From the IMG/VR virus record IMGVR_UViG_3300038621_000255, positions 1 to 63,256 of that record: a stretch of 63,256 nt of DNA; one strand, 5' to 3'. Below, one piece after another: positions 18,865 to 61,137 of this stretch. This stretch comes from a virus. Its lineage: Duplodnaviria; Caudoviricetes. Under the pieces are notes generated by a model, which was not told where the DNA came from, searched no databases, and saw only the letters and a program-made list of their open reading frames with translations. Both the position numbers and the translations under genes were made by a program. Numbering within the stretch: position 1 is the first letter of the stretch; every line of letters begins with the position of its first letter.

Positions 18865-18899
18865 TGTTCGTGGTGTTACAACGCCTCTGCCAGATCTAC

Positions 18900-25569: not shown

Positions 25570-25634
25570 TAATCCCCAGGGGGAGGTTTACACCTTCCCG
25601 TTGCTTTATCTCTACTGTTTGATTTTTGAGATTG

Positions 25635-27239: not shown

Positions 27240-27298
27240 AAATAAGGGCAGGGGACCACCCTGCCCGCACAAAACGAACGAAAAAGGAGCGATCGCAC

Positions 27299-29191
27299 AT
27301 GCAACTATTCGATACTAGCTTATACTCCCAGAATCAGCAACAATCAGCAGACTACCCAATCCCCCAGCCCAATTGGGAACTAATCCAAACCCAAGAGAGG
27401 GCAATCGAGGTGATTGAATCCCTAATGGGGTCAGACTCTCCCTCTCCCCTTGGCATAGATTTGGAAACCACCGGATTGCACCCCCAGGATAACTCCAAGG
27501 GAGAGTACCCACGGATCCGGTTGCTACAGATAGCACCGACCCCTGATTTTTGTTACATTCTCGACCTATTCTACCTAGATGTTGGGCAGTTGTCCCTGAA
27601 TCAACTATTCCGGGAGAGGCGGAAAGTCGCTCACAACTTTAAGTTTGAGGCGCTATGGTTGAAATCTATTGGGGTAGAAGTTCGCGCCCCCTTGTTCTGC
27701 TCCTTCCTAGCTGCCCAACTGATAGAGAATGGCAAACATGAAAAGAACAACAATGGCAACAAAGAATCCCCCTATAGTCTCCGTTCCGTTGCTAGGAAAT
27801 ACGCCCAGAAAGCCATCCCAAAGGAACAACAACGCTCGGATTGGTCGAAATTGCAACTGTCAAAAGAACAGTTGGAGTACGCCGCTAGGGATGCGGCGAT
27901 CCTCCTGGAAATCCGTGAGGCTCAATTAGAACCCTTGAAATCGAATGGGCTAATAAAGGTTGCCCAATTGGAATTTAGAGCGGTCCTTGCATTTGCCCAA
28001 CTTGAATACGAAGGTGTGCTTCTAGATTGGGAGAGGCTAGAGGGTATCCGACAAGGTGCGATCGCCAAGTTGGAACCCGCTAGGCAAGAGTTTCTGAAGG
28101 CTCTAGATAGCGAGATAGGGCTGGAAAAAGATATTTTTGGGGGTTACGCCTTTAACCCCCGCTCGAACGAACAATTACTTGCTGCTTTCCAAAGGGCAGG
28201 TATCCCGGTTAGGGATGTTCGTAAGGAATCCCTAGAGCCTTTAGCCTCAGATTATCCCTTGATTGAAAGGTACTTGAGTTATCACCGAATCGAAACTCAA
28301 ATCGCTGATATTGAGAAGTATTACCCATCCAAAGCACGGAAGCATATCCCTTGGGATTCCGCTACTGGGAAGATCTTTCCCGGGTATTGGCAAATCGGAA
28401 CAATATCGGGACGTGCAAGCTCGAAAGAGCCTAATATTCAAAACCCACCAAAAGGGGAATTCCGAGAATGTGTCATCCCGGAATCTGGTAAAAGGTTTGT
28501 AGTAGGCGACTACAGCCAGGCGCATCCCCGGATTGTGGCTAAGGTCTCCTGCGATGCTGCATTCACTCAGGTTTTCCAAAATGGTGAGTGCTGCTACTCC
28601 TACGAAGCTTCTACCCTTACTGGCAAGCCGATTGAGCAAATTAAGCGGGAACACAAAGAGAAGACCAGCAACGACCGGAATGACGCGAAACCAGTAGTTT
28701 TGGGCTTTATTTATGGGCTTTCCCCTGGTGGTTACGTTCGGCAGGTACAAGGGAAACACACTGAGGCTTTTGCACGAAAAGCCCGTAACCAATTTTTTAA
28801 AACCCACCCAGAGGTCGGAAATTGGCACGAACAGATTCAGCGGAAATTGGATATTTCCGCAATCGCCACCACCCAATCGGGACGTATTGTGGAGTTGAGG
28901 GGAAGAAACCGTAGGTTTAATTTTGCTGTGAACTTTCCAGTCCTGGGCACGGAAGCCGATATGATGAAATCGGCGATGGGTTTCCTGGTTGAGGAATTCG
29001 ATAAGTTACCCTACAAGGTAAGTTTGAAGATAATGATTCACGACGAAATCGTTGTTGAGTGCCCCTGTGGTAAAGAGGAAGAGGTTTCGCAAATTCTAGA
29101 TCGCGTCATGAGGGAAGCTAGCGATTTGCTTATTTCCCCTATTCCTGCCAAGGTGGATATCGAGTCGGGTGATTCCTGGGTTAAGCCTTAA
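27299..29191 (+). CDS. polA: Family A DNA polymerase with 3'-5' exonuclease
   Basis: DLETTG, AHNFKFE, YAARD exo motifs; PNIQN, DYSQ, R..AK..G..YG, HDE polymerase motifs. Confidence 0.93.
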   Translation: MQLFDTSLYSQNQQQSADYPIPQPNWELIQTQERAIEVIESLMGSDSPSPLGIDLETTGLHPQDNSKGEYPRIRLLQIAPTPDFCYILDLFYLDVGQLSLNQLFRERRKVAHNFKFEALWLKSIGVEVRAPLFCSFLAAQLIENGKHEKNNNGNKESPYSLRSVARKYAQKAIPKEQQRSDWSKLQLSKEQLEYAARDAAILLEIREAQLEPLKSNGLIKVAQLEFRAVLAFAQLEYEGVLLDWERLEGIRQGAIAKLEPARQEFLKALDSEIGLEKDIFGGYAFNPRSNEQLLAAFQRAGIPVRDVRKESLEPLASDYPLIERYLSYHRIETQIADIEKYYPSKARKHIPWDSATGKIFPGYWQIGTISGRASSKEPNIQNPPKGEFRECVIPESGKRFVVGDYSQAHPRIVAKVSCDAAFTQVFQNGECCYSYEASTLTGKPIEQIKREHKEKTSNDRNDAKPVVLGFIYGLSPGGYVRQVQGKHTEAFARKARNQFFKTHPEVGNWHEQIQRKLDISAIATTQSGRIVELRGRNRRFNFAVNFPVLGTEADMMKSAMGFLVEEFDKLPYKVSLKIMIHDEIVVECPCGKEEEVSQILDRVMREASDLLISPIPAKVDIESGDSWVKP

Positions 29192-29230: not shown

Positions 29231-29788
29231 TTAAATTAAGTCGAAGTCCGCTCGCCGGCGGATTATTTTTGTGCGATCGCTATAGTGGTAACGCCACCCC
29301 AACCAGAAAATAAAAGTGCTGCTGCGGTTCAGGAACCGCAGTGCTTTTTCGTTTTCCTTATGGTTTGGCGCGTAGTTTTTATACAACCTTTCCAGCTCCC
29401 GGATTTCTACCCGTGCTTTATCTAAGGTTTTGCCAGGGGTAAAAGGGAACGATACGAAATCGGGAACTCCCGGGAGCTTCGGGAGATACCTTTCATTTAG
29501 TTCTTTTTCCAGGATTTCCACCCCTCGGCTTAAATTCTCTAGATCGTATCCATCGAATTGGATCGCCGCCAGGCAATCATGAACCCCGTAGAGTATTTCT
29601 TCTAGAAAACGAAGCTCCCGTACCGTTAAATGCAAATTCTGACAATCAGCCAGGGCATTTCTAGCCTTGTCTCCTTGCCCCCAGATTAGAGATTTTTCAG
29701 ACCTCTTTAAACAGTTTTGGAAAGAACAATTCCCTGGATCACCCTTTCCAAATTTCGCCTTAGTGTGGATCCTGTATTCCTTTTGCAT
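29231..29788 (-). CDS. PduO-type ATP:cob(I)alamin adenosyltransferase-like protein
   Basis: IHTK..GDPG, ARVEIRELER, FLNRSSTFIF parallel PduO motifs IYTRTGDxG, RRAER, YLNRLSD. Confidence 0.72.
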   Translation of the reverse strand: MQKEYRIHTKAKFGKGDPGNCSFQNCLKRSEKSLIWGQGDKARNALADCQNLHLTVRELRFLEEILYGVHDCLAAIQFDGYDLENLSRGVEILEKELNERYLPKLPGVPDFVSFPFTPGKTLDKARVEIRELERLYKNYAPNHKENEKALRFLNRSSTFIFWLGWRYHYSDRTKIIRRRADFDLI

Positions 29789-36046: not shown

Positions 36047-38104
36047 ATGGCAACTATTAACAACACGCTATCAGACGTAAATAATGCTCTGGCCAGTCTG
36101 GAAACAGCTGTTAGTGGCAACCTATCGGCGGCATCGAACGCTCAGAAAATCAAGGGGTTCCCTGTTGCTGACTTATCGGCGATGCCCGATGGGGCGATCT
36201 TCCGGTATAACGCCACCTCGGGAGAAATTGAACCTCTAGAGGGATTGGGGGATTTCTCTGGTGCGCAAGATGGGGATTTATTAAAATGGAATTCTACCAA
36301 TAACAGGTTTGAGGTGGCGACACCATCGGATATCACATTCGCAGTTGAGGATCTAAGCAATACCCCTGATGTTTTAACTGGGAATGCAAATAGGTTACTT
36401 GTTCTAAATTCTGCTGAAAATTCTTTTCAATTTAGAAATTATTCGGGTTTATCCCTATCCGATTTTGAGATAAAAGAAAGCCAAAAGATCTTTCAACAAG
36501 AAAGGTTAACGTTCAATCCAGTTAATTTTTATAAAGATAAACCCCTTCTAGATTCCTACAATGATAGGGAGGACCAGAGCAAGATAGACTCTGTGAAAGC
36601 TTCGGTTCAAGGTGTAGATCCCACGACAGAGGCATTTAAGGTTCTAGCAATGAAGGCAAATTTTGGGAATATCTTGAATGAAAGTTTGGACTTTCATTTT
36701 GGGTATCAAAATGTTCTATTAAGCCAATCAACAGCATCCACTAGCGATGTATTTATACAATTCGATTTTAATTCCCTACAATCTTTTGGTTCCCTTGACG
36801 TGTTATCTCTTCAAAGTAATGATCGTTTCTATTACCAGCTAACAGAATTTGAAATTCGTACAATTGACGATGCTGGAAACGAAACTTTACAGAAAACAGT
36901 GTCAGTCCCTGGAGAATATGAAGAGAATATAACCCATAAAACCTTTGAACCCAGTACCGTAGTCACGGGGGTAAGATCGGTAAAGATTGTTTGTTTAAAT
37001 AGTGGGGAATTATTTAATAGGACACCAGGATTCCAAATATTCTCCCAAAAAGGGTTGAGTTCTATAAATAATTACCCTTATTCTCAAGAATTTAGAATGG
37101 AATCAGATAAATATCTGGTTAGTCCATTCCTATCAAACGGAAGCGATTTATACATCCTAAAACAAGATATAAGGGAGGATCAAAATGGGATTGTTTATAA
37201 ATGGAATTCTACAGAAAGGAAATGGGATCAGCTTCTTTCTGTAGAAACCCAAATGAAAAACAGCCTCGACACCCCAGTAACTTACAATAATACAACAGGG
37301 AATATTTATCACTCTGCAAATAATCCTCTCTATTATATTGATAAACAAGGTATGGTTGTGGTAGGGGAGAAACTTCTACACTCTTACCAAATTTTTGATT
37401 TATCTAACGCCTCAGATGGCAGCAGGTTATCTGTTTCAGGTGATACCAACCTATCTATCCCATTTGAAGGACAACTCCCTTATAAACACTCTGCCACGGA
37501 TGAGAGGGTGATCAGGTATGGCCGCGAAAGCTATACCCTAGATACTCTAAACGTACCTGGAAACGATCTAGCTAATGCTGATATTGGACCTATTATAACC
37601 CCTAAGGAAATCCCGGAACTACAAAATACAATGGGTCAGGGGTACATCTTCGATAATGAGAGAGAATTCTACTTACCCCTGGAATCTGCTGGTAAGATAC
37701 TCGTTATTTCCACTGTGGATCTATCCCTGCTCACACAGATATCGGTAGGGAATAGACCCCACCTTGTAAAAATAGATGAAACAAACGATATTGGCGTATC
37801 CCTGGAGGAGGAGGCGTTTACAACCTTCAATCCCTCCACAAAATCCGTGCTTTCCCAAGAGCAACTAGGGCAAGGAAGCATTAACGTCAAGAACTACCCT
37901 GTTGATATTAGTTTTAATCCCAACAACCAAGAAGCTTTGATCCTAGTCGCAGGCAGCAATAGGTTGCTGCATTATGACATGTCTACCACCACCTTCCTAG
38001 ACGAAACAAAGTTGGATTACACCCCTCGGCAATCTATCTTTTGGGAAGGTGAATACTTTATTCTGTCTGAAGAAGGAACAATCTACACAATAGGGGAGAT
38101 CTAA
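36047..38104 (+). CDS. Tail fibre / receptor-binding protein
   Basis: DGDLLKWN repeats, beta-propeller-like C-terminus, AT-richer sequence. Confidence 0.65.
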   Translation: MATINNTLSDVNNALASLETAVSGNLSAASNAQKIKGFPVADLSAMPDGAIFRYNATSGEIEPLEGLGDFSGAQDGDLLKWNSTNNRFEVATPSDITFAVEDLSNTPDVLTGNANRLLVLNSAENSFQFRNYSGLSLSDFEIKESQKIFQQERLTFNPVNFYKDKPLLDSYNDREDQSKIDSVKASVQGVDPTTEAFKVLAMKANFGNILNESLDFHFGYQNVLLSQSTASTSDVFIQFDFNSLQSFGSLDVLSLQSNDRFYYQLTEFEIRTIDDAGNETLQKTVSVPGEYEENITHKTFEPSTVVTGVRSVKIVCLNSGELFNRTPGFQIFSQKGLSSINNYPYSQEFRMESDKYLVSPFLSNGSDLYILKQDIREDQNGIVYKWNSTERKWDQLLSVETQMKNSLDTPVTYNNTTGNIYHSANNPLYYIDKQGMVVVGEKLLHSYQIFDLSNASDGSRLSVSGDTNLSIPFEGQLPYKHSATDERVIRYGRESYTLDTLNVPGNDLANADIGPIITPKEIPELQNTMGQGYIFDNEREFYLPLESAGKILVISTVDLSLLTQISVGNRPHLVKIDETNDIGVSLEEEAFTTFNPSTKSVLSQEQLGQGSINVKNYPVDISFNPNNQEALILVAGSNRLLHYDMSTTTFLDETKLDYTPRQSIFWEGEYFILSEEGTIYTIGEI

Positions 38105-38566: not shown

Positions 38567-40202
38567 CAATTTCAACCCCAAAGAAACTCTAGATTTCGGA
38601 CAACCCCTGGTAAAAAATGAGGTGGCACTCCCCGAAGATAAGCCCCGTGAGGGGGCAGCTGGCTATAGACTCTATGAAGAGTACGCCAGTCTGTTCAGGG
38701 ATTTAAAGCTTGCCCACGTGTGGCGGCAATTCAGCACCTCAATTGCCCAGCGCCCCCTGCGGGTAGTCTCGAATAGTGACAGCCAGCAAGATCGCCGGTT
38801 GGCGGAAATTGTTGGAGATACTTTTAAAGAACTGATAGGGGCGCAAGTAGTCGAAGATCTGTTGGGTGCAGAATTTTACGGGTGGTCGTTACTGAAACTG
38901 AAATGGGCTCGAATTGACGGGTTGGATTTACCGGTGCGGGCTTTGCCACAGGATATAACTTGGTATCGGTGGGTATATCGCCCTGGTGGAGGAGATCGTA
39001 AGGAACGATTTCCCTATGACTATTCCGGCGATTTTGAACTTCGCTCGATTGAGGGTGAGAAAGAGCTAAGGCGCTTTAACCGGTGGGAGAAGCATTTCGT
39101 AGAGCATACATCTAATTTCGCCCCACGTTTCACCCATTCGCCCCTCGGTAGAGGATGGGGTGAGCTTTTTTGGTGGTGGATTAAAGAGCTGAAACTAAAA
39201 AGCTTACAAGCTTGGAGTCAGCAAATCCAAGAGCATGGCTTACCGGTGGCAGCTCTAAAAGATTCCAATCCGGAGCAGGTGCCCATTATTGATGAAGAGC
39301 AACAAGCGCAATTTTGGAACTCAATCGAAGATGCTTTTGCAAACCGGGGTTTGGTGGATTTAAGCGGCAAGGGAATCCAGCTTGAGTACTTAAATCCACC
39401 CGGTAGCATCGACGCATCGCGCTTGCCGGAGTACATCGACAAATTGATTGCCCTTTTTGTACTCGGTCCCACTTTGGCGAGTGAAAGTGGGCACGTGGGG
39501 TCGCAAGCTCTAGGTACGGTACACCAGGAGCAAAGTGACAGAATTTTAAAGGACTCGGCAGATAAACTCAAACGCCCCTTGAGCCGTATTGCCAGCTGGA
39601 TTCGAGAGGCGAATAACATCCCGGGAGTACTCCCCCAGATTTATTTAGATTTCTCCAGTGAGGAAGATCTAGACAGGGAAATCGACCGGTGGTCAAAATT
39701 GGTGAATATAGGGTATCAGCCAACCCCGGAAAAGGTAGAGGAGGTGTTGGGCAAGGGATTTGCCCCGGTTAGCACAAGCTTCCTACAGGGTGAAGCCGGC
39801 GAGAGAGAACAAGAACGCAGGGAACGGCAAAACACACCCCGTGAATTCGCAGCTGCTGCCAAGGAAGTAGAGCCACCCCCGGAGTCACGACCGGAAAGCA
39901 TCAATTTCCTCACAAGGGCTGCAATTGATAGGCAAGCTGCCCCTCTGTTCGATGAATCGATCTCGCTTGTAAAACAGTTCCTAGAAGGTTTAGCAGAGGA
40001 ACGCCCCAACGCTAGCGATCAAGAGCTATTGCGATTAGCCCAAGCCCGATTGCCGGAAGTGTTTGAGGAGCTACCAAATGAAAAACTCGCGGAATTATTG
40101 GGGGCTGCGCTAACGGGTAGTAATATGGCTGGTAGAGACGACGCAAGGGAAGAACTAGACAAACAGGTCCGACGCGATCGCAGAGAGGAGGAAAGTGGTT
40201 GA
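38559..40202 (+). CDS. Portal protein (Mu gp29/DUF935-like)
   Basis: SPLGRG, HGLP, VLGPTL..GSQALGTVH. Confidence 0.88.
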   Translation: MPNNFNPKETLDFGQPLVKNEVALPEDKPREGAAGYRLYEEYASLFRDLKLAHVWRQFSTSIAQRPLRVVSNSDSQQDRRLAEIVGDTFKELIGAQVVEDLLGAEFYGWSLLKLKWARIDGLDLPVRALPQDITWYRWVYRPGGGDRKERFPYDYSGDFELRSIEGEKELRRFNRWEKHFVEHTSNFAPRFTHSPLGRGWGELFWWWIKELKLKSLQAWSQQIQEHGLPVAALKDSNPEQVPIIDEEQQAQFWNSIEDAFANRGLVDLSGKGIQLEYLNPPGSIDASRLPEYIDKLIALFVLGPTLASESGHVGSQALGTVHQEQSDRILKDSADKLKRPLSRIASWIREANNIPGVLPQIYLDFSSEEDLDREIDRWSKLVNIGYQPTPEKVEEVLGKGFAPVSTSFLQGEAGEREQERRERQNTPREFAAAAKEVEPPPESRPESINFLTRAAIDRQAAPLFDESISLVKQFLEGLAEERPNASDQELLRLAQARLPEVFEELPNEKLAELLGAALTGSNMAGRDDAREELDKQVRRDRREEESG

Positions 40203-40577
40203 CCGAATGGTATGCAGTTGGTATAATATAAAAAGACAGATGGATGTGGTACCATTTGTTGGAATTGATCATTTTTCTTCATTTTTGTTGTTTTCCTTAA
40301 TATAGCTTGTTTTTAGCTGTGGTTTGGCTGCAACCGAACTACATTTAACCAGTGGATGGCAGTCCACTGGTTAAATTTTTGGATGGTTCAAGATAAATGA
40401 GAAGGCACCCGTCGAAAAGATGGGTGCCTTCACGTTTTGATTTGGCTGCCACCAAACCAAAACTATATCCCCTTGAATGGTTGAATGGGAATACACAAAC
40501 TTATAAAGAGGTTAACACGATTATTTTAACACGAATTTCTTAATTTTAATACCAACCAACGAGAACCAAAAATAACC

Positions 40578-40904
40578 CTATTTATACACCTGGCGCTTCC
40601 TCAAATCAGCCCAGAGGCTAAAGGGAAGGCGTTCCCGAGCGAATGGAGTGCCGTTCTCGTCAATATACTCCAAAAACACCCCATTTTTCGCCCGGCTGAA
40701 ACTTAGCCGGAATTTCTCAATTCGTACCCGTTCCCAAGAGCCGTAACCGGGGTTGTACAACTCAAATTCTTCTACGCTGTGCTTTTGGAAGGGACGAACG
40801 AAGAATATCTTAAATGCCTCGGACCAGTAGCGGATTTGGTCTCGAAATGCTTCCTTAATTATACTCAAGGCTATCCCAGAAAGCAGAACCTTTTCAAAAT
40901 CCAC
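40578..40904 (-). CDS. Hypothetical protein
   Basis: Coupled ORF with N-terminal hydrophobic segment. Confidence 0.55.
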   Translation of the reverse strand: MDFEKVLLSGIALSIIKEAFRDQIRYWSEAFKIFFVRPFQKHSVEEFELYNPGYGSWERVRIEKFRLSFSRAKNGVFLEYIDENGTPFARERLPFSLWADLRKRQVYK

Positions 40905-41142
40905 GCCGCCGCACCTCCTGAGCTAGTTTTTTAAGTTCCTTTTTCCGTGCAAAAAATCGGTTCCCTCGACGCGAACGATTGATATAGAATTTGAAGTCCC
41001 CACCAGATAAAAATATCCGGCAAAAAGTCTGATCGCCTAGATCTAGGACATCGCAAGGGTATTCCTCAAACCGGAACTTACGCAGAAAGGAAAATAAATC
41101 AAGGGGGACTCGTAGGATCCAATTCCAAACTGGTCGTAGCAA
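40894..41142 (-). CDS. Hypothetical protein
   Basis: ORF overlapping neighbours in the same direction. Confidence 0.45.
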   Translation of the reverse strand: MLRPVWNWILRVPLDLFSFLRKFRFEEYPCDVLDLGDQTFCRIFLSGGDFKFYINRSRRGNRFFARKKELKKLAQEVRRRGF

Positions 41143-41629
41143 GGGACTTCGCCTCCTTCGATAAGGATATCATCCCCATTTTAATCAATCCCTCGCCGAT
41201 AAACATATCCCTCGCCACGGCACTTTCCCCACTGTTAAACGGCGTTTCGTAGAAAATTTCCCGAATTCCCGCCGAAATCAATAGTTTCAAACAAGACAAA
41301 CAGGGTTCTAAAGTAACATAGATGCTAGCGCCTGCAGTGGCAATCCCGTGTTTGGCAGCTTGCGCGATCGCATTAGCTTCCGCATGAACCGCACGCGACG
41401 GCAACTCCCTACTACCGGCATCGCAGCTACTCAATCCCGGATAGCAATATCCTTGTGCGATACAGTGCGGCGAACCGCTGGGAGGTCCATTATATCCCGT
41501 TGCCAGTACCTGCCTATCCTTGACAACAACAGCTCCCACAGGAAACGCCAAACAGGTAGAACGGGTAGCCGCCAGTTTCGCTAGCATCAAAAAATATTCA
41601 TCCCAAGTGGGTCGCTGGTAATCAGGCAT
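41099..41629 (-). CDS. dCMP deaminase
   Basis: RPTWDEYF, RSTC, TGYNG, HAEANA, PCLSC. Confidence 0.95.
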   Translation of the reverse strand: MPDYQRPTWDEYFLMLAKLAATRSTCLAFPVGAVVVKDRQVLATGYNGPPSGSPHCIAQGYCYPGLSSCDAGSRELPSRAVHAEANAIAQAAKHGIATAGASIYVTLEPCLSCLKLLISAGIREIFYETPFNSGESAVARDMFIGEGLIKMGMISLSKEAKSLATTSLELDPTSPP

Positions 41630-43100
41630 CTTGCGTATAAGGAATATCGTTCGTCAAACAGTTGTACGCTTTTTGTAGTTCTATACCCAAATATCCTGCA
41701 TGTTCGGCATGGAGAACGGGAGCATCCGCGCAAATATCTCGCATCAAATTCAATGGTTTTTTCCCGCGATAGGTAGCCACCACTTCGCCGCTACCAGGGG
41801 TTAGCCACTGTACGACAATTTGACCGTGTTCTAGTTCGATTTGGAAATTACCAGAGGGATCGTAAAAATCGCGATTCCGGCGTACAATATGGGCATACTG
41901 GTCTTGAATCAAGCGATCGGCATTATCCCAACAATCATCATAGATATGCGCCGACTGACTAACAGTAATTAACGGACCCAACCGCAAATTGTAGAAACTA
42001 CGTTGGTTTATGCGATCGCGAATATGCTTTTGTAACGCTCGCAATCCCATGGCATTCGCCGGCCAAGCCGCAAACATATCGTTGCTGCGTAGCGTCGCCG
42101 TCAGCGATAGTTCGTTGTCTACCACCCGAACCCAAATATGGTTCAAACAGGGACTTCCGCCTTTCTCGTGGTCGCGAACATCCCACAACGACATCACCGC
42201 ACTAGCAGCATCAATCTCACCAATCAGCTTTTCGATAACCTGTTCCACCTGGTCGCGTCCAAACCAAGAACGCAACCGCTGGCCGTACGTATATTTCACC
42301 CCTTCGCGATAGGGAGCATCGTTTAAAATTTGAGGAATGTATTCCTTGATAAAAGCACGGTCCACAGGCAAATAATTGGGTTCGGGAAAATAAAAATCCT
42401 CCGGTTCGTCGGTAATAACCGCCACCAAATCGATCAGTTCCTGCCACTGACCGTCGTAGCCAGTAGGTCGAATGGTTCCGGTAGTTTTGATGCGGTGGAT
42501 AATTTTGACCCAAGTTTCGGCAATAGTTTTGCCTTCAATGCGATGGCCGTAACGCGAACCAGGCAAAACCGTAGGCGTATTTTCCACCAACGGAAACTCT
42601 TGGGGTTCTCCCCACGGTGGCTGCCAATCTTGACTGGCATAGGATTTGGCCAGTTCGCAGGCCCTGTCTTTATCCGTCACCAACTGCCATTCAATGGCAT
42701 CCCGCAATTGCTGCAACACCGAGGCAGGGATTTCTTCGTCGATATATCCCGGTACTGGAGAACGCACCACCCAACAGGAACGACCGGTGTCGCTAACACC
42801 AGCAGTAAATCCATGCTCAAAAAAATCGCGCAGGCATTCGCAAGCTCTGGCGTTTTTGTCTTCTTTGGTAGCGTCGAGAATAACCAAATAGCGTACGTGG
42901 GGATTGGCAATTAAATTGCGAACCAATAAATTAATTCCCCGGGTCGCACTGTACAGCTGTCCAATTGCGGCGTACTCGTAGGGCTGTAGATGCTTGGCTA
43001 CGGTATCTCGCACCGTCCACCCGGTAACGATGGCAGTTTGCCCTGTACCGCAGATGACTTGATTTGGCTTGTATATGGGCTTGTATTTCCAACCTGGCAT
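41622..43100 (-). CDS. thyA: Thymidylate synthase (cyanobacterial multidomain type)
   Basis: YTYGQRL, PCL, RSNDMFAAWPAN, SAHIY; extra N- and C-terminal domains. Confidence 0.88.
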   Translation of the reverse strand: MPGWKYKPIYKPNQVICGTGQTAIVTGWTVRDTVAKHLQPYEYAAIGQLYSATRGINLLVRNLIANPHVRYLVILDATKEDKNARACECLRDFFEHGFTAGVSDTGRSCWVVRSPVPGYIDEEIPASVLQQLRDAIEWQLVTDKDRACELAKSYASQDWQPPWGEPQEFPLVENTPTVLPGSRYGHRIEGKTIAETWVKIIHRIKTTGTIRPTGYDGQWQELIDLVAVITDEPEDFYFPEPNYLPVDRAFIKEYIPQILNDAPYREGVKYTYGQRLRSWFGRDQVEQVIEKLIGEIDAASAVMSLWDVRDHEKGGSPCLNHIWVRVVDNELSLTATLRSNDMFAAWPANAMGLRALQKHIRDRINQRSFYNLRLGPLITVSQSAHIYDDCWDNADRLIQDQYAHIVRRNRDFYDPSGNFQIELEHGQIVVQWLTPGSGEVVATYRGKKPLNLMRDICADAPVLHAEHAGYLGIELQKAYNCLTNDIPYTQDA

Positions 43101-43102
43101 GG

Positions 43103-43363
43103 TTACCCCCTAAAAGCTTTCCGGAAGGGGAGAACGCCTAAAATTTTCGCTTCCACAATGATTTTATTAGGGGACTCGCGATAAAGGGATACCCTGGAAG
43201 CGAAGCCGAGCAAATAACCCCAATAACCCATCATCGCCCGAGCAATCCCTGGCAGTAATTGCCCCTCCCACGGGTTGGATTTTCCCACTAAAAAACCCTT
43301 TAGATTTCTAGCGATCGCACTTTCGCTTTCTGGTGGTTCGACCCACTGCTTTTGAAAAAACAT
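43103..43363 (-). CDS. Hypothetical protein
   Basis: GGAGG RBS and extended -10 upstream. Confidence 0.6.
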   Translation of the reverse strand: MFFQKQWVEPPESESAIARNLKGFLVGKSNPWEGQLLPGIARAMMGYWGYLLGFASRVSLYRESPNKIIVEAKILGVLPFRKAFRG

Positions 43364-43404
43364 CGAAATACCTCCCGTTTGCCTATCTCAATTTTATCAC
43401 CCTT

Positions 43405-43845
43405 GCCGCTGTAATAATTAGGCATAAATCGGTGTAATCTCCACCAACAGGGAATTATACGGTTTTGGATAGAATTTAGCCAGATTTTTATTACAGCTTT
43501 TATTATAGCCCCATAATATGCCTACAATCTCCACACAGAGCAGATCTCAGCAGGTCTTTCTCCGGTCGGGATAAAGCCATAATAAAAATTATATTACAGT
43601 CCTTCACCCCTGCAAAATCCCTAAAATCTCCTGTACGTCTGGATTCCAGGCTAATTACAAGGGGTCGCAGCAAAAATTACAACCGGGTCTACGCGGATCG
43701 CTGTAATCCCTCAACCATGCAGATTTTGGATTTTATTACAGTATTACTAGATCGGGTAATATATCCTGTAATATTTGCTGTAATCTCCACACAGAGCGAA
43801 TTTTGACCCTATTTGAATATACTATTGTATACTGTGTTACGAAAT
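43405..43845. repeat. ATTAC-rich locus C containing right arm (43693-43796) of 104-bp inverted repeat
   Basis: Exact reverse complement of 18910-19013; 43485-43540 near-inverted to 57994-58050. Confidence 0.92.
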
Positions 43846-44052
43846 TTCGTTGTTAGTACCGGCATAAAAATAGGGATACCCAATTCTAGGGAATAGGTAT
43901 CCTTGTGGTTTAACTACCTTTAACCACCCTTTCGCCCTCTTATCTGTGGCATTTCAGAATTTATTTTAGAAACTGGTTGACAATATCTAGAGGGTTGTGT
44001 CACTATAAAAATAGTTAGTTCATTCAGCAGAGTAGACCGACGAGGTAAATAC

Positions 44053-44217
44053 ATGCACAATCAACGCAAAATAAAGGTTTCCCTAGATGCCCTGGAACAA
44101 ATATCGGAAGTGTATCCGGAATATGTCGCCCAGGTTCTACAGGAAGTGGCAAATATAGATGGGTCTCAAGTAGATGAAATTTTACGGTGGCTAGAATCAG
44201 AATCAGAAGAAAAGTAA
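44053..44217 (+). CDS. 54-aa acidic protein (below ORF-track cutoff)
   Basis: GAGG RBS, ATG..TAA directly after promoter at 43977. Confidence 0.6.
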   Translation: MHNQRKIKVSLDALEQISEVYPEYVAQVLQEVANIDGSQVDEILRWLESESEEK

Positions 44218-44225
44218 AACCTTAC

Positions 44226-44253
44226 CGACCTGGGTAAGTCGTTAAAGTGCCCT
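44226..44253 (+). ncRNA. Putative pseudoknot, copy 2
   Basis: CGACCTGGGTAAGTCGTTAAAGTGCCC. Confidence 0.6.
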
Positions 44254-44286
44254 GCAACAAGAGTAAATGCACTGGAGGCAAACACC

Positions 44287-44895
44287 ATGACTACAACAAC
44301 AGAACAAACCCAAAACGACTTAGAAATCGCCACTGTTTTTATTAACGGTGAATCCAGCCTGGGGTTCGAAGACGATAACCTTGGATCCGATGCTGTACAG
44401 GCTTCGGCTGCCGAGGTCAATGAGCAACCTGATTGGAAACAAGAAAATCTTGAGCCAGGGGATGTTCTAGATCTCTCTGACGGTCTCGTCAGAGTTGACG
44501 ATCAACTCGACTTTGTAAACCCCGACAAGGAAGACGAACAGCAGGAGCAAGGAGAACAACAGGAGCAAACGTCCACAGAACAAGATACCGTTCAGGAAGA
44601 ACAGCAAGAGCGAAACGACAGTCAAGAAAGCAAGGGTATCAAACAAAAACTTGCCAGCATTCCCCACAAACGGCTAAAAGTAGCTATTTTAGCCTCCGCA
44701 GCTGTTGCGGTTTGGGGGACCGTCTACTCCGTCTTTACAACCCCATTTCCTTCCCTCTTGTTCGATGTCGTGGGGATTGGGTCTGCCATATGGTTCATCT
44801 ATCGGTATCTCTCGACTGCAGAGGGTCGGGAAAATTTGGAAAATGACTTACATCGTATTTGGAAACGAGTCTGGGATTGGGTACTTAACTACTAA
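44287..44895 (+). CDS. CAAD/CurT-like membrane protein with acidic N-terminus
   Basis: P..LFDVVGIGSAIWFIYRYLSTAEGRENL matches CURT1/CAAD pattern ELvGlgY..WF.yRYL....R.eL. Confidence 0.8.
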   Translation: MTTTTEQTQNDLEIATVFINGESSLGFEDDNLGSDAVQASAAEVNEQPDWKQENLEPGDVLDLSDGLVRVDDQLDFVNPDKEDEQQEQGEQQEQTSTEQDTVQEEQQERNDSQESKGIKQKLASIPHKRLKVAILASAAVAVWGTVYSVFTTPFPSLLFDVVGIGSAIWFIYRYLSTAEGRENLENDLHRIWKRVWDWVLNY

Positions 44896-44948
44896 GTAAG
44901 TACATGGGGGCAGCTACTGCCCCCCATTTTTATTGGAGGCAAGAAAGT

Positions 44949-46238
44949 ATGGCATTGCAGACTAAGTATCGCCCCAAGTTTTTTGCAGAGGTTCGGGGGC
45001 AAAACTTCACAGTCGAAACCCTGCAAAAGTCCCTAAAAGCAGGGAAGTTCGCCCAAGTTTACTTATTTGCAGGGCATCACGGTTGTGGCAAAACAACCAT
45101 AGCCCGGTTGCTGGCAAAGGCGTTGAATTGCCAACAACAGAATAACCACCCTAGTGCAGAACCTTGCGGCACTTGCCCCAGCTGTAAGGCGATAGAGAAA
45201 GATAACAGTTTAGATTATGTGGAGTTCGACGCGGCATCGAATTCAGGGATCGAGCATGTGCGCGAATTAATACAGAACGTCAGTTTATGCGCCGCTCAAT
45301 CTCGCTACAGAGTCTTTGTGGTAGATGAGTGTCACCAATTGAGTAGAGCCGCTCAAGATGTTCTGTTAAAAACGCTGGAAGAGCCTCCAGCCCACGTGGT
45401 TTTTATTTTCACCACAACCGACCCTCAGAGGTTGAACGATACGGTGCGATCGCGCTGCCATGAGTTTCGGTTTCGTTCCCCTACTCATGAGGAGAGTGGC
45501 GACCTTTTGAGGGAAGTGGCAGAGAAAGAGGGAATAGATATCACCGACCCAGCAATCGCCGAGTTGGTTGCGATTTCCAAGGGTAGCGTTCGGGATGCTC
45601 AAAAAAATCTCGACCTCCTAGCTTCTAGAGGGGAACGAATCACCCCCGACCTAGTGCGGGAATTTGGTGGGGTGCTTGGGTTTCGCCAAATTTTGCCTAC
45701 GATCCAGGCGATCCAGAGTGCGAACTCCATCGGTGTGGTAAATAACCTGGATCCCCTATTTGCACAGTACCCTTGCGAAGAGATTTTGAGAAAAGTTTCG
45801 GAAATCTTCCGGGATATTTTTGTGCTAGCCGCGACCGGGGACGAATCCTTGTTGGAGAACCCCGTATCCTCTTTGGTGTGCGATCGCGGCGAGGCTGCTA
45901 AGAAATTGCAGAGACTCAAGGAAGCCTCCACCCAGTTGCACCGGGTGTCGGAACGACAGAAGCAAATCTGGTTGGAAGTTGTTTTGATGGAATTATGCAA
46001 ACTTTCTTCCTCATCCTCATCATCGCCGCCACAACCAGAACCAAAAAGAGAGACACCAAAGGAAGATAATCACGACCAGGTATTGCAGAAACTCAAACCT
46101 AGGCTTCGGCGAACTTTGCAACCCCAGTTGGTGAAAATAGAAGGGGATACCTGTTGGGTGAGATCGCGATCTCCCCTAAAATTGGTTGAGCCGGAATTGA
46201 AGAAGCTGGGTTATCAAATTAAGGAGGTCACGTCATGA
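44949..46238 (+). CDS. dnaX: DNA polymerase III clamp loader gamma/tau
   Basis: KYRP..F, GCGKTT, PCGTCPSC, DAASN, DECH, LLKTLEEPP, SRC. Confidence 0.95.
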   Translation: MALQTKYRPKFFAEVRGQNFTVETLQKSLKAGKFAQVYLFAGHHGCGKTTIARLLAKALNCQQQNNHPSAEPCGTCPSCKAIEKDNSLDYVEFDAASNSGIEHVRELIQNVSLCAAQSRYRVFVVDECHQLSRAAQDVLLKTLEEPPAHVVFIFTTTDPQRLNDTVRSRCHEFRFRSPTHEESGDLLREVAEKEGIDITDPAIAELVAISKGSVRDAQKNLDLLASRGERITPDLVREFGGVLGFRQILPTIQAIQSANSIGVVNNLDPLFAQYPCEEILRKVSEIFRDIFVLAATGDESLLENPVSSLVCDRGEAAKKLQRLKEASTQLHRVSERQKQIWLEVVLMELCKLSSSSSSSPPQPEPKRETPKEDNHDQVLQKLKPRLRRTLQPQLVKIEGDTCWVRSRSPLKLVEPELKKLGYQIKEVTS

Positions 46239-47113
46239 AAATTCATGTTTTAGTTGGGGACTCAAGGTGGGAAATTAACCACCGAATCGGCGAATTGCTA
46301 TCCGGTTGGGGCGTTTCCCTTCGGGATGTCTCCACCTATGGGAACGATGCAAGTAGGGAACGGGTAGAAAGCGATCTGCGAATTTTACCTCTATTCTCTC
46401 CAAGCAAAGTGGTACTTTGGGAAGGTTGCAAGGTGCAAGATTTGGTAGAGCTTAGGGGTAGTTCGCAGTCGAATTTAGTTGCCGTTTCTACCAGTGCCGA
46501 TCCTCCTCAGTCTGAGGCTTGGGACTGGCTAAAGAAAAACGCCCAGGTAGAGGAATTCTATTTGCCCAAACCTTGGCAACACCAGAAGGTGCAGAAAAAG
46601 ATCCAGGAGATTGCCCAGAAACAACAGATTTTTATTGAAGAAGGGGCCGCCGAGGCTCTAGCAGAAGAGTATGAAATAGATTTCAATAGAATCGCTAAGG
46701 AGATGGAAAAACTTTCCATCTATCCGAAGATAGACGACTCTCTTGTCCGGCTGGCTTCTACTGGTTCCAAAACTTCGGTATTTGATCTAATCGAAGCCCT
46801 AATTGATGGAAGGACTGGAGAAGCGTACAAGACAGTGAATCACCTAGTACAGCAGGGGCAAAGTCCCTTACAGATCCTTGGTTTTTTACTGGCAGAACTT
46901 GATCGCTATCTGCGGGTAAAACTGGATCTTGATATTTCTAGCATGTCGCCGGCAAGACGGCGATTTCTAAAAAAACGACTCAGTGCAGTTTCCCTTGATT
47001 TTCTGAAAACGGCATTAGAGCTAACGATTGATACCCAGAATCTATTGAGTGAAGGAAGCGACCCACTATTGTGTCTCCAAACTTTAGTTCTGGAGCTGTC
47101 TCTGGAGAGATAA
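46235..47113 (+). CDS. holA: Clamp loader delta subunit
   Basis: Coupled to dnaX; EMEKLSIY, SVFDLIEAL, PLQIL patterns. Confidence 0.8.
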   Translation: MKIHVLVGDSRWEINHRIGELLSGWGVSLRDVSTYGNDASRERVESDLRILPLFSPSKVVLWEGCKVQDLVELRGSSQSNLVAVSTSADPPQSEAWDWLKKNAQVEEFYLPKPWQHQKVQKKIQEIAQKQQIFIEEGAAEALAEEYEIDFNRIAKEMEKLSIYPKIDDSLVRLASTGSKTSVFDLIEALIDGRTGEAYKTVNHLVQQGQSPLQILGFLLAELDRYLRVKLDLDISSMSPARRRFLKKRLSAVSLDFLKTALELTIDTQNLLSEGSDPLLCLQTLVLELSLER

Positions 47114-47186
47114 TATAAATTGGTTGACAATCCCAAGGGATTGTGTCATGCTAAAAATAGCTGGAGCAAACACAACGAGGTTAACT

Positions 47187-47657
47187 ATGTCTGAGCGCGT
47201 GAAAACCATTATCGAGATGGTCCGCCCTATCATACAAGGGATGGACAAAGAGGAAAAACTGGAACTAAAGAAAAAGTTGGGAATCAATTCCTCCCAAAGC
47301 CAGATCAATCATATAGAAGGGGTGGAAGTCAGTGGGAATTTCCACTTTAACCCAAGGCAAGAAAATGGCAATCCTAGAAAACCTAAAGTGGAGATAGTGA
47401 TAAATAAGGATTTATCAAACAACCACTTAGCTGGTCGTTGCTACAGTTTATTTTATGAAAAGGATTTTGAGTGTAGGTTTCAAAATTTATGCTCCGATTT
47501 AGGTTGCACCGAAGTTAGTTATACTGGGAGGAATTGGTTTTGGCTAGGATATAACCTTCCTCCGTTGGAGCTAGATCCGTTATTCGATAAAATCGAACAT
47601 CATTTCCCTAATACAGATTGGGATCTCGATTTCTCTATTGTGGGGGAGGAAAGGTAA
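47187..47657 (+). CDS. Hypothetical protein
   Basis: Promoter at 47124 and GAGG RBS before ATG 47187. Confidence 0.65.
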   Translation: MSERVKTIIEMVRPIIQGMDKEEKLELKKKLGINSSQSQINHIEGVEVSGNFHFNPRQENGNPRKPKVEIVINKDLSNNHLAGRCYSLFYEKDFECRFQNLCSDLGCTEVSYTGRNWFWLGYNLPPLELDPLFDKIEHHFPNTDWDLDFSIVGEER

Positions 47658-47803
47658 TGAGATGGATTCTGATTTTATCCCTAACGGGAAACATCACCTT
47701 ACTATTCTACTTGCTTTCCAATAGGGAACTGGCAAGTTTTAGTTCCCTATTGGGGGGTGCCCTGCTTTGGTGGGAAATGAAATAAGAACAATAAGGAGAT
47801 ATT

Positions 47804-48127
47804 ATGCAACCTAAGACTTTTTACGAACGGTTGGACTGTAGTAAGTTTATTACAAAAATCCCCCGCAACATACCAAAAGAATTGCTCCATGATTGGCAGT
47901 ATGTAGGGGATAAAAGGGCAATTGATGGGGCACCTCTCCAAATTGTAATGCACTTTTCCCCTGCAAAAGAAGCTTTTTACCGTGGTATTCCAGCTAGTCG
48001 ATGGGGCGATCTTTGGGATCTGTTTGACGGTTTTCAGCATTTCTTTTATTCCCCAGAGGGGAAGCTATTAGAAGACCATGTCCGCAGGCGTTGTAGTGAG
48101 AACGTGGTTATTGTGGATAATATATAG
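47804..48127 (+). CDS. Hypothetical protein
   Basis: AAGGAG RBS. Confidence 0.6.
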   Translation: MQPKTFYERLDCSKFITKIPRNIPKELLHDWQYVGDKRAIDGAPLQIVMHFSPAKEAFYRGIPASRWGDLWDLFDGFQHFFYSPEGKLLEDHVRRRCSENVVIVDNI

Positions 48128-48217
48128 GGTTTGGCGGATGGTGGAACCCTGGTGGGGAATTTCGTATAAATACGAACACACGCTTAATACGTTCACGGCT
48201 ACAATTGACAAAACTGT

Positions 48218-48511
48218 TTGGTAAAGAACATGATGAAGTCTCAACCTTACCGCAAACATTGCCCCACCTGCGGTGCCAACCGGGTCACTTACCCTGACGG
48301 CACCTCTAAGATGGAGACCCAATGGTCGCGTGCCAATAATGCAGAACCTATGGATTTAGCCGCTTTTCATACCAAGTGTTGCCGATTTGTGCGGCAACAC
48401 GGCGATTTCTGCATTAATATCCCACCCACAAGGCAGGAATACGACGCCCGATACGACTACGAAGAACAACACCAGTTATTAACCCAGGAAATACAAAACG
48501 CCTTAGATTGA
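48218..48511 (+). CDS. Cys-rich hypothetical protein
   Basis: CPTC and CC..C; start uncertain. Confidence 0.55.
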   Translation: MVKNMMKSQPYRKHCPTCGANRVTYPDGTSKMETQWSRANNAEPMDLAAFHTKCCRFVRQHGDFCINIPPTRQEYDARYDYEEQHQLLTQEIQNALD

Positions 48512-48585
48512 TAGAATTAGGGATAGATAGGAACTTGTTGGGATGGTGTAACACTGCCTTAGCCCCGGTGGGTGGCCGGGGCTTT

Positions 48586-49470
48586 TTAGTAGTTCTGGAC
48601 CAACACTTCGCCAACTTCGCCGCGATCGCTACCCTTAGAATTTATCGACCTGCGTACTTCTAAAGGGTAGATATTGAAATCTTGGTATAGTTCCCTAATC
48701 AAGGGGCAATCCGAGTTTGAGAGTAGGAATTTTGCGCCTTTTCGGTCTATTTCCTGGCAAAACCTGGCAACTTCCCTTTGCATTTCATCGCCCCATTTTT
48801 CGTTGCCTACGTAGGAAGTGTGCGATCCTTCCGTTCGCTTGGGGTAAGGTGGATCTAGGTATACAAAATCCCCACTCGAAACCGATTCTATAATCTCCCT
48901 GAAATCACAGTTCCAGACGGTGCAGTCCTTATGGTTGAGAACTTCAGAGAGAGATAGAATCAAATTTTGATTGTAAAGATTTACCTTTTCGTAGTGTCCC
49001 CATGGGGCATTAAAATTACCTTGCAAATTCTCTCGCCACAACCCATTGAAACAAATACGGTTGAGAAATACCGCACGGACTGCTCTTACAAGTTTGCGGT
49101 CGGAAGGGTGGTTATTGAATAAATCGCGCGTAGAATAGTAAAGGTACTCTTTGAGATCCACCGCGGCATTGTTGTATTTTTTCTCCAATTCTCCCAAGTA
49201 GTGGGCTAATAAATCGGGCTGGTCCCTCACTACCTCTAATACTTCGATTGGTACCCGGTTCGTATCACTCCCCACTCTTTTCCGGTTTGGGAAGTACCTT
49301 GCCATTTCCCAAAATAGTGCCCCACCTCCTAGGAAGGGTTCCCAGTAGGTTTGAAATTCCTTGGGCAAGTGACTCCAAAGGGTGGACAGAATTTGTCTTT
49401 TCCCACCTGCCCACTTCAGAATGGGCTGTGGCTTCGTTTGGTTTCCAATATCTAGCTCTAGTTGCTGCAT
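48586..49470 (-). CDS. dam: Dam-family DNA adenine methyltransferase
   Basis: KWAGGK, EPFLGGG, FNGLWR.N..G.FN.P, DPPY. Confidence 0.92.
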   Translation of the reverse strand: MQQLELDIGNQTKPQPILKWAGGKRQILSTLWSHLPKEFQTYWEPFLGGGALFWEMARYFPNRKRVGSDTNRVPIEVLEVVRDQPDLLAHYLGELEKKYNNAAVDLKEYLYYSTRDLFNNHPSDRKLVRAVRAVFLNRICFNGLWRENLQGNFNAPWGHYEKVNLYNQNLILSLSEVLNHKDCTVWNCDFREIIESVSSGDFVYLDPPYPKRTEGSHTSYVGNEKWGDEMQREVARFCQEIDRKGAKFLLSNSDCPLIRELYQDFNIYPLEVRRSINSKGSDRGEVGEVLVQNY

Positions 49471-49550
49471 TCTATAAAGCCATTTACAATAACCATCAAT
49501 TCTACTATACTAGTTTCTAGTAGGAAAAGCAAACAGTAGGAGGCATTATC

Positions 49551-50042
49551 TTGCTATTTCCATTAGTGGGTATCGACCCGGGCAAGCAGGGGGCGATAGC
49601 GCTTGCAACCTCACCCTATAGGGTGATTATCGCTGATTTCCCTTTACTACAAGGACAGCCCGACCGGGAAAAATTATACTCCTTTTCTGCCCTCGCTCGT
49701 GGTGGAATAGCTTGGATAGAAACCCCGCAGTTTCGCCCAAGCGATATGCGCAGAAACATATTTTCCGCTGGCACTTTCTACGAGTGCTGGCAATTCCCCT
49801 TAATTCTGCATGGATGTTCCATTGCAGAGGTGCCGGCAAGCACTTGGAAGCGAGAAATGGGTCTTTTTGGTACGGGAAAAGATGGGGCGATCGCACTCGC
49901 CAAACAAATCTTTCCCACGGCAAATCCCTATCTGCAAAGAAAAAAAGACCATGACCGTGCAGAAGCTCTATTAATCTTGAGATACGCGCTGATACAGGAA
50001 GGAGGAGAGCTTGGTAAAGAAATCTCTATGGATTTGTATTAG
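49551..50042 (+). CDS. RuvC-like Holliday junction resolvase
   Basis: GIDPG..GAIA, IE, P..WK, HDRAEALLI. Confidence 0.85.
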   Translation: MLFPLVGIDPGKQGAIALATSPYRVIIADFPLLQGQPDREKLYSFSALARGGIAWIETPQFRPSDMRRNIFSAGTFYECWQFPLILHGCSIAEVPASTWKREMGLFGTGKDGAIALAKQIFPTANPYLQRKKDHDRAEALLILRYALIQEGGELGKEISMDLY

Positions 50043-57949: not shown

Positions 57950-58530
57950 ACCATAATATTTTTATTACAGGGGTACGAAAACGCTGTAATCTTCTGTGTG
58001 TGGAGATTGTAGGTATATTATGGGGGCTGTAATAAAAACTGTAATAAAAACGCAGCATAAAAATATTACAGTGCGCGATCGCAACCAGAATATTTTTATT
58101 ACAGAAGGTGCGGAAACGCTGTAATCTCCTATGCGACTGAATTCTAGGTAAATTATAAGGTCGTGATGGCATGGACTGTAATAAAAATAATATTACACCG
58201 TAATAAAACGCTGTAATCTCCTGTGTGCGGAGATTACAGGCTCGTAACGAGGTCGTAATAAAATAGCGAGCGCAGGGGCATAATTACGCAGCTGTAATAA
58301 TAACCAAAACCCGCTTTGTGTGGAGATTACAGCACTTATAATATCCAAAATGTAACACACTATACTTACCCCTTTTATAATCGACCTCAAATCCCCTGTG
58401 TGTGGAGATTACAGCAAATATTATAGGGTATACGCACAGATCTAGTAATACCGTAATAAATGCTGTAATCTCCTGTGCGACTGGATTTGAGGTCGATTTT
58501 TAGAGTTGGTTGTATAACGTGTTACATTTT
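57950..58530. repeat. ATTAC-rich locus D with ~185-bp imperfect palindrome (58347-58530)
   Basis: CTGTAATCTCC-N7-GGAGATTACAG boxes; nested arms AAAATGTAACAC/GTGTTACATTTT and AATCGACCTCAAATCC/GGATTTGAGGTCGATT. Confidence 0.9.
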
Positions 58531-60865: not shown

Positions 60866-61054
60866 ATGCAAAACAACACCAACCAAACCCCATTCCCAGA
60901 TCTCTCCCTGGAGGATCTGGAAGCATCAGAGCAAATGCTCTGGAATTCCTTAAACAAAATCGATGCCGCCGCCGGCATTGATAAAAGTCACACTTACGAA
61001 ACCTGGAAGGAAATCAATAATATTTCCCAGGATATCAGAATCGAGGATCTATAG
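60866..61054 (+). CDS. Small acidic cassette protein
   Basis: Promoter at 60804. Confidence 0.6.
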   Translation: MQNNTNQTPFPDLSLEDLEASEQMLWNSLNKIDAAAGIDKSHTYETWKEINNISQDIRIEDL

Positions 61055-61137
61055 TGGGACAAGGGGGTCCGCACCGATTGTTCGGAATTTTCTCAAATCG
61101 AAAATCAAGCCGTATCTCAGTCGGCAGGAGCTACAAT

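Follow-up and report, generated by a model that had tools for sequence, protein, structure and literature searches.

A phage protein joining a diverged CAAD domain to a conserved acidic module: a candidate membrane anchor in a putative cyanophage

The CAAD gene and the phage that carries it

The DNA analysed here, referred to as the window, is an entire IMG/VR virus record (IMGVR_UViG_3300038621_000255; 63,256 nt), a linear record of ~63 kb from a contractile-tailed phage, estimated by CheckV to be about 83% complete. At positions 44287-44895 it carries a gene for a protein of 202 amino acids (aa), comprising an acidic N-terminal region and a C-terminal CAAD domain, the domain of the CurT/CURT1 superfamily. 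The only close relative of this protein among 5.8 billion protein clusters is P0002, a 293-aa protein from a 1412-bp metagenome contig. The gene and the features of its product, in which TM denotes a transmembrane segment, are as follows:

44287..44895, + strand: gene of the CAAD-domain protein (202 aa), ATG start; identical in contigs of runs X2, X3 and X4
44274..44278, + strand: ribosome-binding site GGAGG, 8 nt 5' of the ATG of the CAAD gene
44332..44550, + strand: conserved acidic N-terminal module (residues 16-88), a repeat unit with two copies in P0002
44551..44637, + strand: poorly conserved E/Q-rich linker (residues 89-117), where P0002 has its extra module
44680..44871, + strand: match to Pfam CAAD (PF14159), residues 132-195, profile positions 17-83 of 85
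44680..44736, + strand: hydrophobic helix 1 (TM1), residues 132-150, from hydropathy and AlphaFold
44746..44802, + strand: hydrophobic helix 2, residues 154-172, with G163 and W169-F170 inside, followed by R173-Y174-L175
44827..44889, + strand: C-terminal Trp-rich amphipathic helix, residues 181-201, from the AlphaFold helix and the hydrophobic moment

The open reading frame (ORF) at 44287-44895 is a real gene. Its GC content (0.471) and its GC content at third codon positions (GC3, 0.458) lie at the phage means of 0.470 and 0.468, which makes a recent acquisition look unlikely, and its codon-adaptation value (0.773) stands at the low end of the range of the phage genes (0.773-0.842). An earlier sequence-only reading of this DNA had described two TM segments, a WFIYRYL....RENL signature and a long acidic N-terminus, and all three were recovered: two hydropathy windows adjoin at about residues 132-150 and 154-172, WFIYRYL occupies residues 169-175 and RENL residues 181-184, and residues 1-125 contain 33 acidic (D/E) versus 7 basic (K/R) residues, along with 18 Q. 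The flank before TM1 (residues 117-131) holds five Lys/Arg and one His.

The same reading had taken the gene to be phage-encoded, which is borne out by the phage nature of the whole 63-kb record and by a diverged relative in which the gene occupies this locus too. Searches against PHROGs and Pfam revealed structural genes (major head protein, protease, tail sheath, tape measure, baseplate, Mu-type portal and large terminase), accompanied by genes for replication (family-A DNA polymerase (PolA), helicase, beta-clamp and clamp loader) and for nucleotide metabolism and DNA modification (dCMP deaminase, a thymidylate-synthase-like protein, a Dam-type methylase and a class II ribonucleotide reductase). 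The CAAD gene sits between nucleotide-metabolism and replication genes. No near relative was found among GenBank phages, where megablast of positions 40000-50000 gave no match and the best terminase shared less than 32% identity, and the only relative of the phage dnaX in IMG/VR (locus L002) was 23% identical.

The octamer HIP1 (GCGATCGC) occurs 34 times in the window (for example at 43311-43318 and 45446-45453) versus 0.45 expected from shuffles, a 75-fold excess. Its density is 0.54 per kb; 62 loci from genomes with cyanobacterial titles have 0.88 per kb, six unrelated metagenome contigs 0.08 per kb and another viral locus 0. PMC5861425 describes HIP1 as hyper-abundant in most cyanobacteria. 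Together with the CAAD domain, this sequence signature makes a cyanobacterial host very likely. Capsid homologues were present in 3 of 401 cyanobacterial genomes at no more than 33% identity, so that a host genus is not indicated.

Near-identical DNA was found in seven tidal-flat metagenome runs, and the contigs of tidal-flat runs X2, X3 and X4 are identical to the window over the CAAD gene. Run X8, from a salt lake and another study, holds a diverged relative with a CAAD gene upstream of dnaX. One of its pieces covers the CAAD part (44613-44829) with 23 differences over 217 nt and no gaps, and a second (44851-45104) runs into dnaX. An X8 contig matches the window upstream to 44016, has 30 letters in place of 44017-44286, where the window has a small ORF and the leader of the CAAD gene, and resumes exactly at the ATG at 44287, which supports this start codon. 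After seven codons it diverges into LFQTGQLDTP, matching residues 6-15 of P0002 at 9 of 10 positions, which suggests that a P0002-like version occupies the same locus in a related phage.

Other viral copies of the domain were sought with fixed peptide patterns and tblastn rather than with a profile over viral proteomes. Within that scope, tblastn with the phage protein, a cellular CAAD protein (P0008) and a Stenomitos CAAD locus (L009) as queries found none in 50,697 GenBank phage records. A CAAD-alignment scan of 2.9 million IMG/VR contigs gave 17 pattern matches and a single-protein pattern scan of viral contigs for close relatives gave three stretches, none of which was confirmed. The corresponding CAAD-alignment scans of metagenome and genome contigs (0 of 526 and 0 of 309 confirmed) are weak negatives owing to low-complexity patterns. 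A full-text literature search, whose scope left out subscription journals and supplements, found no published virus-encoded CAAD or CURT1. These results agree with the previous remark that the gene is not a standard cyanophage auxiliary gene; within the limits of the searches, the protein appears to combine a known domain (CAAD) with a new carrier, a virus, and a new cargo.

The CAAD domain compared with its cellular relatives

The proposed CurT/CAAD homology, for which the sequence-only reading had named a Pfam search as the check, holds. The protein matched PF14159 with 37.7 bits (E 1.8e-09), above the curated gathering threshold of 30.7 bits, and a six-frame search of the whole record gave 39.2 bits. 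A phmmer search with residues 110-202 against 1.84 billion representatives returned 11 proteins at E <= 1e-3, the query itself included; nine of the 10 non-self matches belong to PF14159, and the tenth (P0005) is a repeat-protein artefact. In an alignment of 34 sequences, consisting of the phage protein, the P0002-type relative and 32 cellular homologues, all eight invariant columns are kept (P153, G163, W169, F170, R173, Y174, L175 and R181). AlphaFold supplied with the CAAD alignment predicted helices at residues 102-123, 127-151, 155-177 and 181-201, the second and third being linked by a 3-residue Pro-containing turn and followed by the C-terminal helix; predicted local distance difference test scores (pLDDT) were 73-89 over the hairpin and the C-terminal helix, and the model resolved the C-terminal helices only. 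A Foldseek search of BFVD produced no match at E <= 0.001. Judged from these sequence comparisons, the C-terminus of the phage protein is a genuine but diverged CAAD domain. No aminoacyl-tRNA synthetase (aaRS) or other enzyme domain was found in the 202-aa protein by the Pfam scan.

The divergence is pronounced. Fourteen cellular CAAD copies from four filamentous cyanobacterial genomes (3-4 each) score 71-118 bits, and the phage copy, at 38-39 bits, is an outlier. A scan of genomes confirmed 68 CAAD loci from 97 pattern matches, 62 of them with cyanobacterial titles; the best identities of the phage protein to such host loci were 42-47% over 45-66 residues (Stenomitos, Allocoleopsis and Oculatellaceae). 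The main length group of host genes encodes stand-alone proteins of about 140-210 aa (52 distinct ORFs), and a second consists of seven loci with ORFs of 1024-1086 aa, which by size alone fit the CAAD-bearing synthetases described in PMC4893482; a few ORFs are of intermediate length. In a domain tree of 34 rows, the phage protein and P0002 form a long branch of their own with a Shimodaira-Hasegawa-like approximate likelihood ratio test (SH-aLRT) support of 94; no starred clade holds this pair, and given the long-branch warning its placement is unsafe and the donor lineage is not placed.

The phage protein shares with CurT of cyanobacteria and CURT1 of chloroplasts the PF14159 match, two adjoining TM helices, the short Pro-containing turn, the C-terminal helix and all invariant columns, and an N-terminal extension before the hairpin is also frequent in cellular copies. 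It differs in its viral origin, its low score, a TM1 that is about 3-5 residues shorter and a conserved acidic module that was found in no cellular protein. Further differences lie on either side of the hairpin. According to PMC12462475, every CurT homologue examined there is predicted to have an amphipathic helix near its N-terminus. In the phage protein, the 30 residues ahead of TM1 contain four hydrophobic residues versus a median of 10 (range 4-13) in the 32 cellular homologues; the best 14-residue hydrophobic moment in this region is 0.40 versus a median of 0.52, and the value for the modelled helix 102-123 is 0.15. Moreover, profile positions 1-16 of PF14159 have no match in the phage protein, and the span from TM1 to the conserved proline measures 24 residues instead of the 27-33 of the cellular homologues. 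The C-terminal helix, on the other hand, reaches a best 14-residue moment of 0.82, exceeding the maximum of 0.69 among the cellular proteins. The pre-TM1 amphipathic helix typical of CurT/CURT1 is thus predicted to be weak or absent in the phage protein. These differences suggest that the hairpin core has been kept, that the predicted curvature-driving element has been degraded and that the C-terminal in-plane helix has been reinforced.

The sequence-only reading had suggested that the phage remodels thylakoids or tethers a replication or assembly site to them. The data above bear directly on whether the phage protein could itself bend or reorganise thylakoids, either on its own or as a partner or poison of the host's CurT assemblies, in which case it would clear space or alter the photosynthetic architecture and its N-terminus would be a mere spacer or regulator. 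The superfamily membership with every invariant hairpin residue retained and the exceptional amphipathicity of the C-terminal helix favour such mimicry. In addition, the effect of CurT on thylakoid architecture is dose-dependent according to bioRxiv 10.64898/2026.04.22.720114. Thylakoid rearrangement in cyanophage infection has been known from microscopy for decades, and invagination during infection or induction is documented in the consulted part of PMC8523472, which names no viral gene for it. The weakness or absence of the helix before TM1, a CAAD part that is the less conserved half of the protein (see below) and a tree that does not place the protein among cyanobacterial CurT-like proteins argue in the opposite direction, and we regard a CurT mimic, the leading alternative to an anchor, as somewhat unlikely.

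The divergence of the phage domain from cellular CAAD also brings up a different possibility, namely that the gene product is a small membrane protein of a generic phage kind (for instance a lysis timer resembling class II holins, a factor in superinfection exclusion or a protein of the plasma membrane), with no thylakoid role implied. Class II holins likewise have two helices in a hairpin whose ends lie on the same side of the membrane, and a weak match to a PHROG holin family was obtained (phrog_19617, E 0.038). This holin match is not significant, however, whereas the CAAD match passes its curated threshold. No endolysin or other lysis gene was detected among the 68 larger and 53 small ORFs of the incomplete record, the gene is located between nucleotide-metabolism and replication genes, and an acidic extension of 125 residues that contains a conserved, repeatable module does not resemble a holin. 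We consider this explanation quite improbable.

The acidic module and its proposed anchoring

The alignment with P0002 divides the phage protein into parts of unequal conservation. The N-terminal module (residues 16-88) is identical at 59 of 72 positions (82%), the linker (89-117) at only 7 of 28 and the CAAD part (118-202) at 35 of 80 (44%). In P0002 the module recurs once in a more diverged form (52% identity over 48 residues, E 3e-15), and there is a single CAAD domain (78.6 bits). No family for the module was found in Pfam or PHROG, nothing significant was returned by NCBIfam, PADLOC or PDB sequence searches, and the ESM Atlas gave no usable match. The protein clusters contained no shorter or longer proteins with the module; a degenerate pattern for its core hit six metagenome stretches, all by chance (stops or unrelated frames), and no viral stretch. 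Going by the alignment with P0002, the N-terminus is a conserved, repeatable module and not merely an acidic tail.

Such conservation matters for the question of whether the gene is a decaying passenger, that is, a host gene fragment carried by the phage and now functionless. Its Pfam score is low in comparison with cellular copies, TM1 is short and the codon-adaptation value is at the low end. Furthermore, a minor X2 contig (depth 21.6 versus about 87 for the main form) joins 44551 to 44918 and leaves out 366 nt, among them the linker and the entire CAAD part, with other letters possible at the joint; this contig may come from a variant that lacks the anchor or from a relative in which the segment has been replaced. 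Against decay stand the open frame with a good ribosome-binding site, the identical sequence in three runs, the preservation of the gene at its locus in the diverged X8 relative, the retention of the invariant residues (8/8), the 82% identity of the module and a GC and GC3 that match the phage. A functionless remnant is, in our view, extremely doubtful.

We propose that the CAAD domain anchors the phage-specific acidic module, as an effector, to the cytoplasmic side of a membrane in the host, with the thylakoid as the likeliest target, a model to which we give roughly even chances. The C-terminal two-helix hairpin would insert into this membrane and leave both protein ends on the cytoplasmic side, a topology suggested by the basic residues that precede TM1, by the lack of charge in the 3-5-residue turn and by the way in which the cargo of cellular CAAD is known to be oriented. 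The hairpin would serve mainly as an anchor that holds the conserved acidic module on the membrane surface, where the module may bind, recruit or sequester a host or phage factor during infection. A CAAD anchor is most likely, ahead of a CurT-type curvature protein: the weak or missing pre-TM1 amphipathic helix, together with a module that is better conserved than the CAAD part, leans towards anchoring and away from curvature, and the doubling of the module in P0002 while its CAAD anchor remains single was likewise counted for an anchor over a membrane shaper.

The closest precedent lies in the host. According to PMC4893482, CAAD directs valyl-tRNA synthetase (ValRS) specifically to thylakoids in Anabaena, and aaRSs are reported to have captured CAAD at least eight times. 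The phage protein would resemble the CAAD-bearing ValRS, GluRS, IleRS and LeuRS of cyanobacteria in using the hairpin as a membrane anchor for a cytoplasmic cargo, and by this analogy with Anabaena ValRS it may be targeted to the thylakoid. It differs in that its cargo is a ~70-residue acidic orphan module instead of an enzyme, that its carrier is a virus and that its CAAD domain is C-terminal rather than inserted.

Several considerations weigh against this proposal. The higher conservation of the module comes from one pairwise comparison, that of the phage protein with P0002. The module is modelled with low confidence (pLDDT 41-54; the P0002 model, at pLDDT 37 overall, cannot be used) and has no known relatives, which leaves "effector" as a provisional label. 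The preference for the thylakoid over the plasma membrane is drawn from the ValRS analogy, and a CAAD score far below cellular values, combined with a short TM1, suggests that targeting may have changed. Direct action of the strongly amphipathic C-terminal helix on the membrane is conceivable and would speak for the curvature alternative. Finally, no RNA runs were present among the sequencing runs listed for the CAAD stretch.

A special case of the anchor would be a replication tether, in which the module binds the phage clamp or clamp loader and holds replication at the membrane. The gene adjoins those of the clamp loader, and a beta-clamp is encoded by the phage itself (689-1876). The most conserved stretch of the module ends in QLDFV, with QLNLV and KLNLF as its P0002 counterparts, which we take to resemble the bacterial clamp-binding motif (QL-x-[LF]-[FV]-like). 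Membrane-anchored organisers of phage DNA replication exist elsewhere, as in phi29, whose p16.7 has one N-terminal TM segment and a DNA-binding domain. Like p16.7, the present protein is a small phage membrane protein among replication genes whose cytoplasmic domain could recruit replication components; unlike it, its module is strongly acidic and unlikely to bind DNA, and no sequence kinship between the two is expected. However, the presumed motif is short, and a second strict match in the tape-measure protein, found among 220 mechanical ORFs, means that it is not statistically distinctive. The conserved region of about 70 residues far exceeds a linear motif, and the link to DnaX comes from adjacency only, with a terminator-like hairpin between the two genes. 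A complex prediction for the module and the phage sliding clamp (score 0.01, mark 0.32) is evidence neither way. A replication tether seems very improbable to us.

The most far-reaching reading, which we hold to be distinctly unlikely, is that the protein is the first viral member of the CurT/CAAD superfamily and the phage factor behind the thylakoid invagination observed in infected filamentous cyanobacteria since 1970. If so, the hairpin would enter the CurT assemblies of the host at the margins of thylakoids, or compete with them, and components for phage replication or assembly would be brought to the cleared space by the acidic module, such that one small protein would both reshape the photosynthetic membrane and mark the site of the viral factory.

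The auxiliary genes known from cyanophages serve photosynthetic electron flow, pigments, and carbon or nucleotide metabolism, and we know of none that acts on thylakoid architecture or anchors proteins there. The phage CAAD hairpin is the first concrete candidate for a viral protein going to the thylakoid system. The protein is small and easily expressed in model cyanobacteria, which makes its localisation, the complementation of curT and the effects on ultrastructure directly testable. Such a viral protein would also show that the CAAD hairpin, repeatedly captured by host aaRSs as set out in PMC4893482, has been captured by a virus too and fitted with a new cargo.

Flanking DNA and other features of the record

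The elements surrounding the CAAD gene are listed below:

43977..43982, + strand: perfect TTGACA hexamer, presumed by the sequence-only reading to be a -35 element; seen by eye and not in the promoter scan
44053..44217, + strand: small acidic ORF (54 aa) 5' of the CAAD gene, with no significant family
44906..44934, + strand: terminator-like hairpin with T-run (8 bp, 7 G-C pairs, loop of 3; centroid energy -16.2 kcal/mol)
44949..46238, + strand: DnaX-type clamp-loader ATPase (PF13177, 1.8e-42; phrog_5846, 2.1e-67)
46235..47113, + strand: delta-like clamp-loader subunit (PF21694, 4.1e-07)

Two regulatory elements previously attributed to the gene, a strong promoter and a pseudoknot leader, were not corroborated. 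A scan for the sigma-70 consensus detected 3 sites in 43100-45000 versus 3.0 expected, none of them 5' of the gene on the plus strand after 43517. The TTGACA hexamer is not followed by a -10 element at 16-18 nt, the nearest TATA-like sequence, TATAAA (44004-44009), being 21 nt away. The 101-nt leader folds no better than its shuffled versions (z -0.35; 68 of 200 shuffles fold as well) in a test that could not score pseudoknots as such, and no Rfam family was found in 43000-45100. As for the 54-aa ORF, the stretch that contains it is replaced by 30 nt in the salt-lake relative, which indicates that it is dispensable and not an obligatory partner of the CAAD gene.

The placement of the gene directly upstream of dnaX-holA was correct as to order, since the CAAD, DnaX-type and delta-like genes follow one another on the plus strand; it needs amending in that a hairpin with a T-run separates the CAAD gene from dnaX. 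Being directly 3' of the CAAD stop codon, this hairpin suggests that the CAAD gene may be its own transcription unit or that transcription is attenuated before dnaX. The true dnaX start is probably the ATG at 44949, preceded by GGAGG at 44935-44939, rather than the nominal ATG at 44904, which overlaps the hairpin; a 1-nt deletion at 44906 in the X8 relative would break the frame from 44904.

Upstream, positions 43101-44052 form a gap of ~950 bp without a convincing gene between divergent gene blocks. The gap contains AT-rich inverted repeats (43484-43509 versus 43573-43596) as well as TTATTACAG-like repeats, and it is possible that it constitutes a control region or replication origin. Another repeat, with the core TGTAATCTCCAC, occurs in six copies in the window versus 0.3 expected, always in intergenic gaps:

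18916-18927, 43433-43444, 43779-43790, 58227-58238, 58320-58331 and 58402-58413: copies of the TGTAATCTCCAC repeat

The stretches 43749-43800 and 18861-18957 around two of these copies have ~50 nearly identical bases in common, and around 43500-43800 metagenome contigs break and word depth spikes. This repeat could act as a promoter or operator of the phage or mark a hot spot of recombination, and how it is oriented to the genes on either side is ambiguous.

Genes for replication lie at scattered places in the record: the beta-clamp gene lies at the left end (689-1876), the helicase and family-A polymerase genes (25626-29191) are wedged between tail and baseplate genes, and the clamp-loader genes (44949-47113) follow 16 kb further on. 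A D12-class (Dam-type) adenine methylase is encoded at 48586-49470; D12-class methylases presumably target GATC, which is the core of HIP1.

On the minus strand, positions 41622-43100 encode a 492-aa protein with a thymidylate-synthase-like core (PF00303, 1.4e-13), a C-terminal PterinBD-DUF4346 region (1.4e-19) and a weakly MtrA-like N-terminus, adjoining the dCMP deaminase gene (41099-41629, minus strand). This protein may make a modified pyrimidine rather than dTMP. A cobalamin adenosyltransferase-like gene (29231-29788, minus strand; PF01923, 2.3e-05) lies between DNA polymerase and baseplate genes, and a B12-dependent class II ribonucleotide reductase is encoded at the right end of the record (61715-62959, plus strand), which together suggest that the phage keeps its own B12-dependent supply of deoxynucleoside triphosphates. 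The plus strand also encodes a pentapeptide-repeat protein at 61054-61647 (PF00805, 3.9e-10), a family that is very common in cyanobacteria, and two large ORFs of 1286 and 685 aa in the structural region (20136-23996 and 36047-38104), for which neither PHROG nor Pfam gave a match at the thresholds applied.

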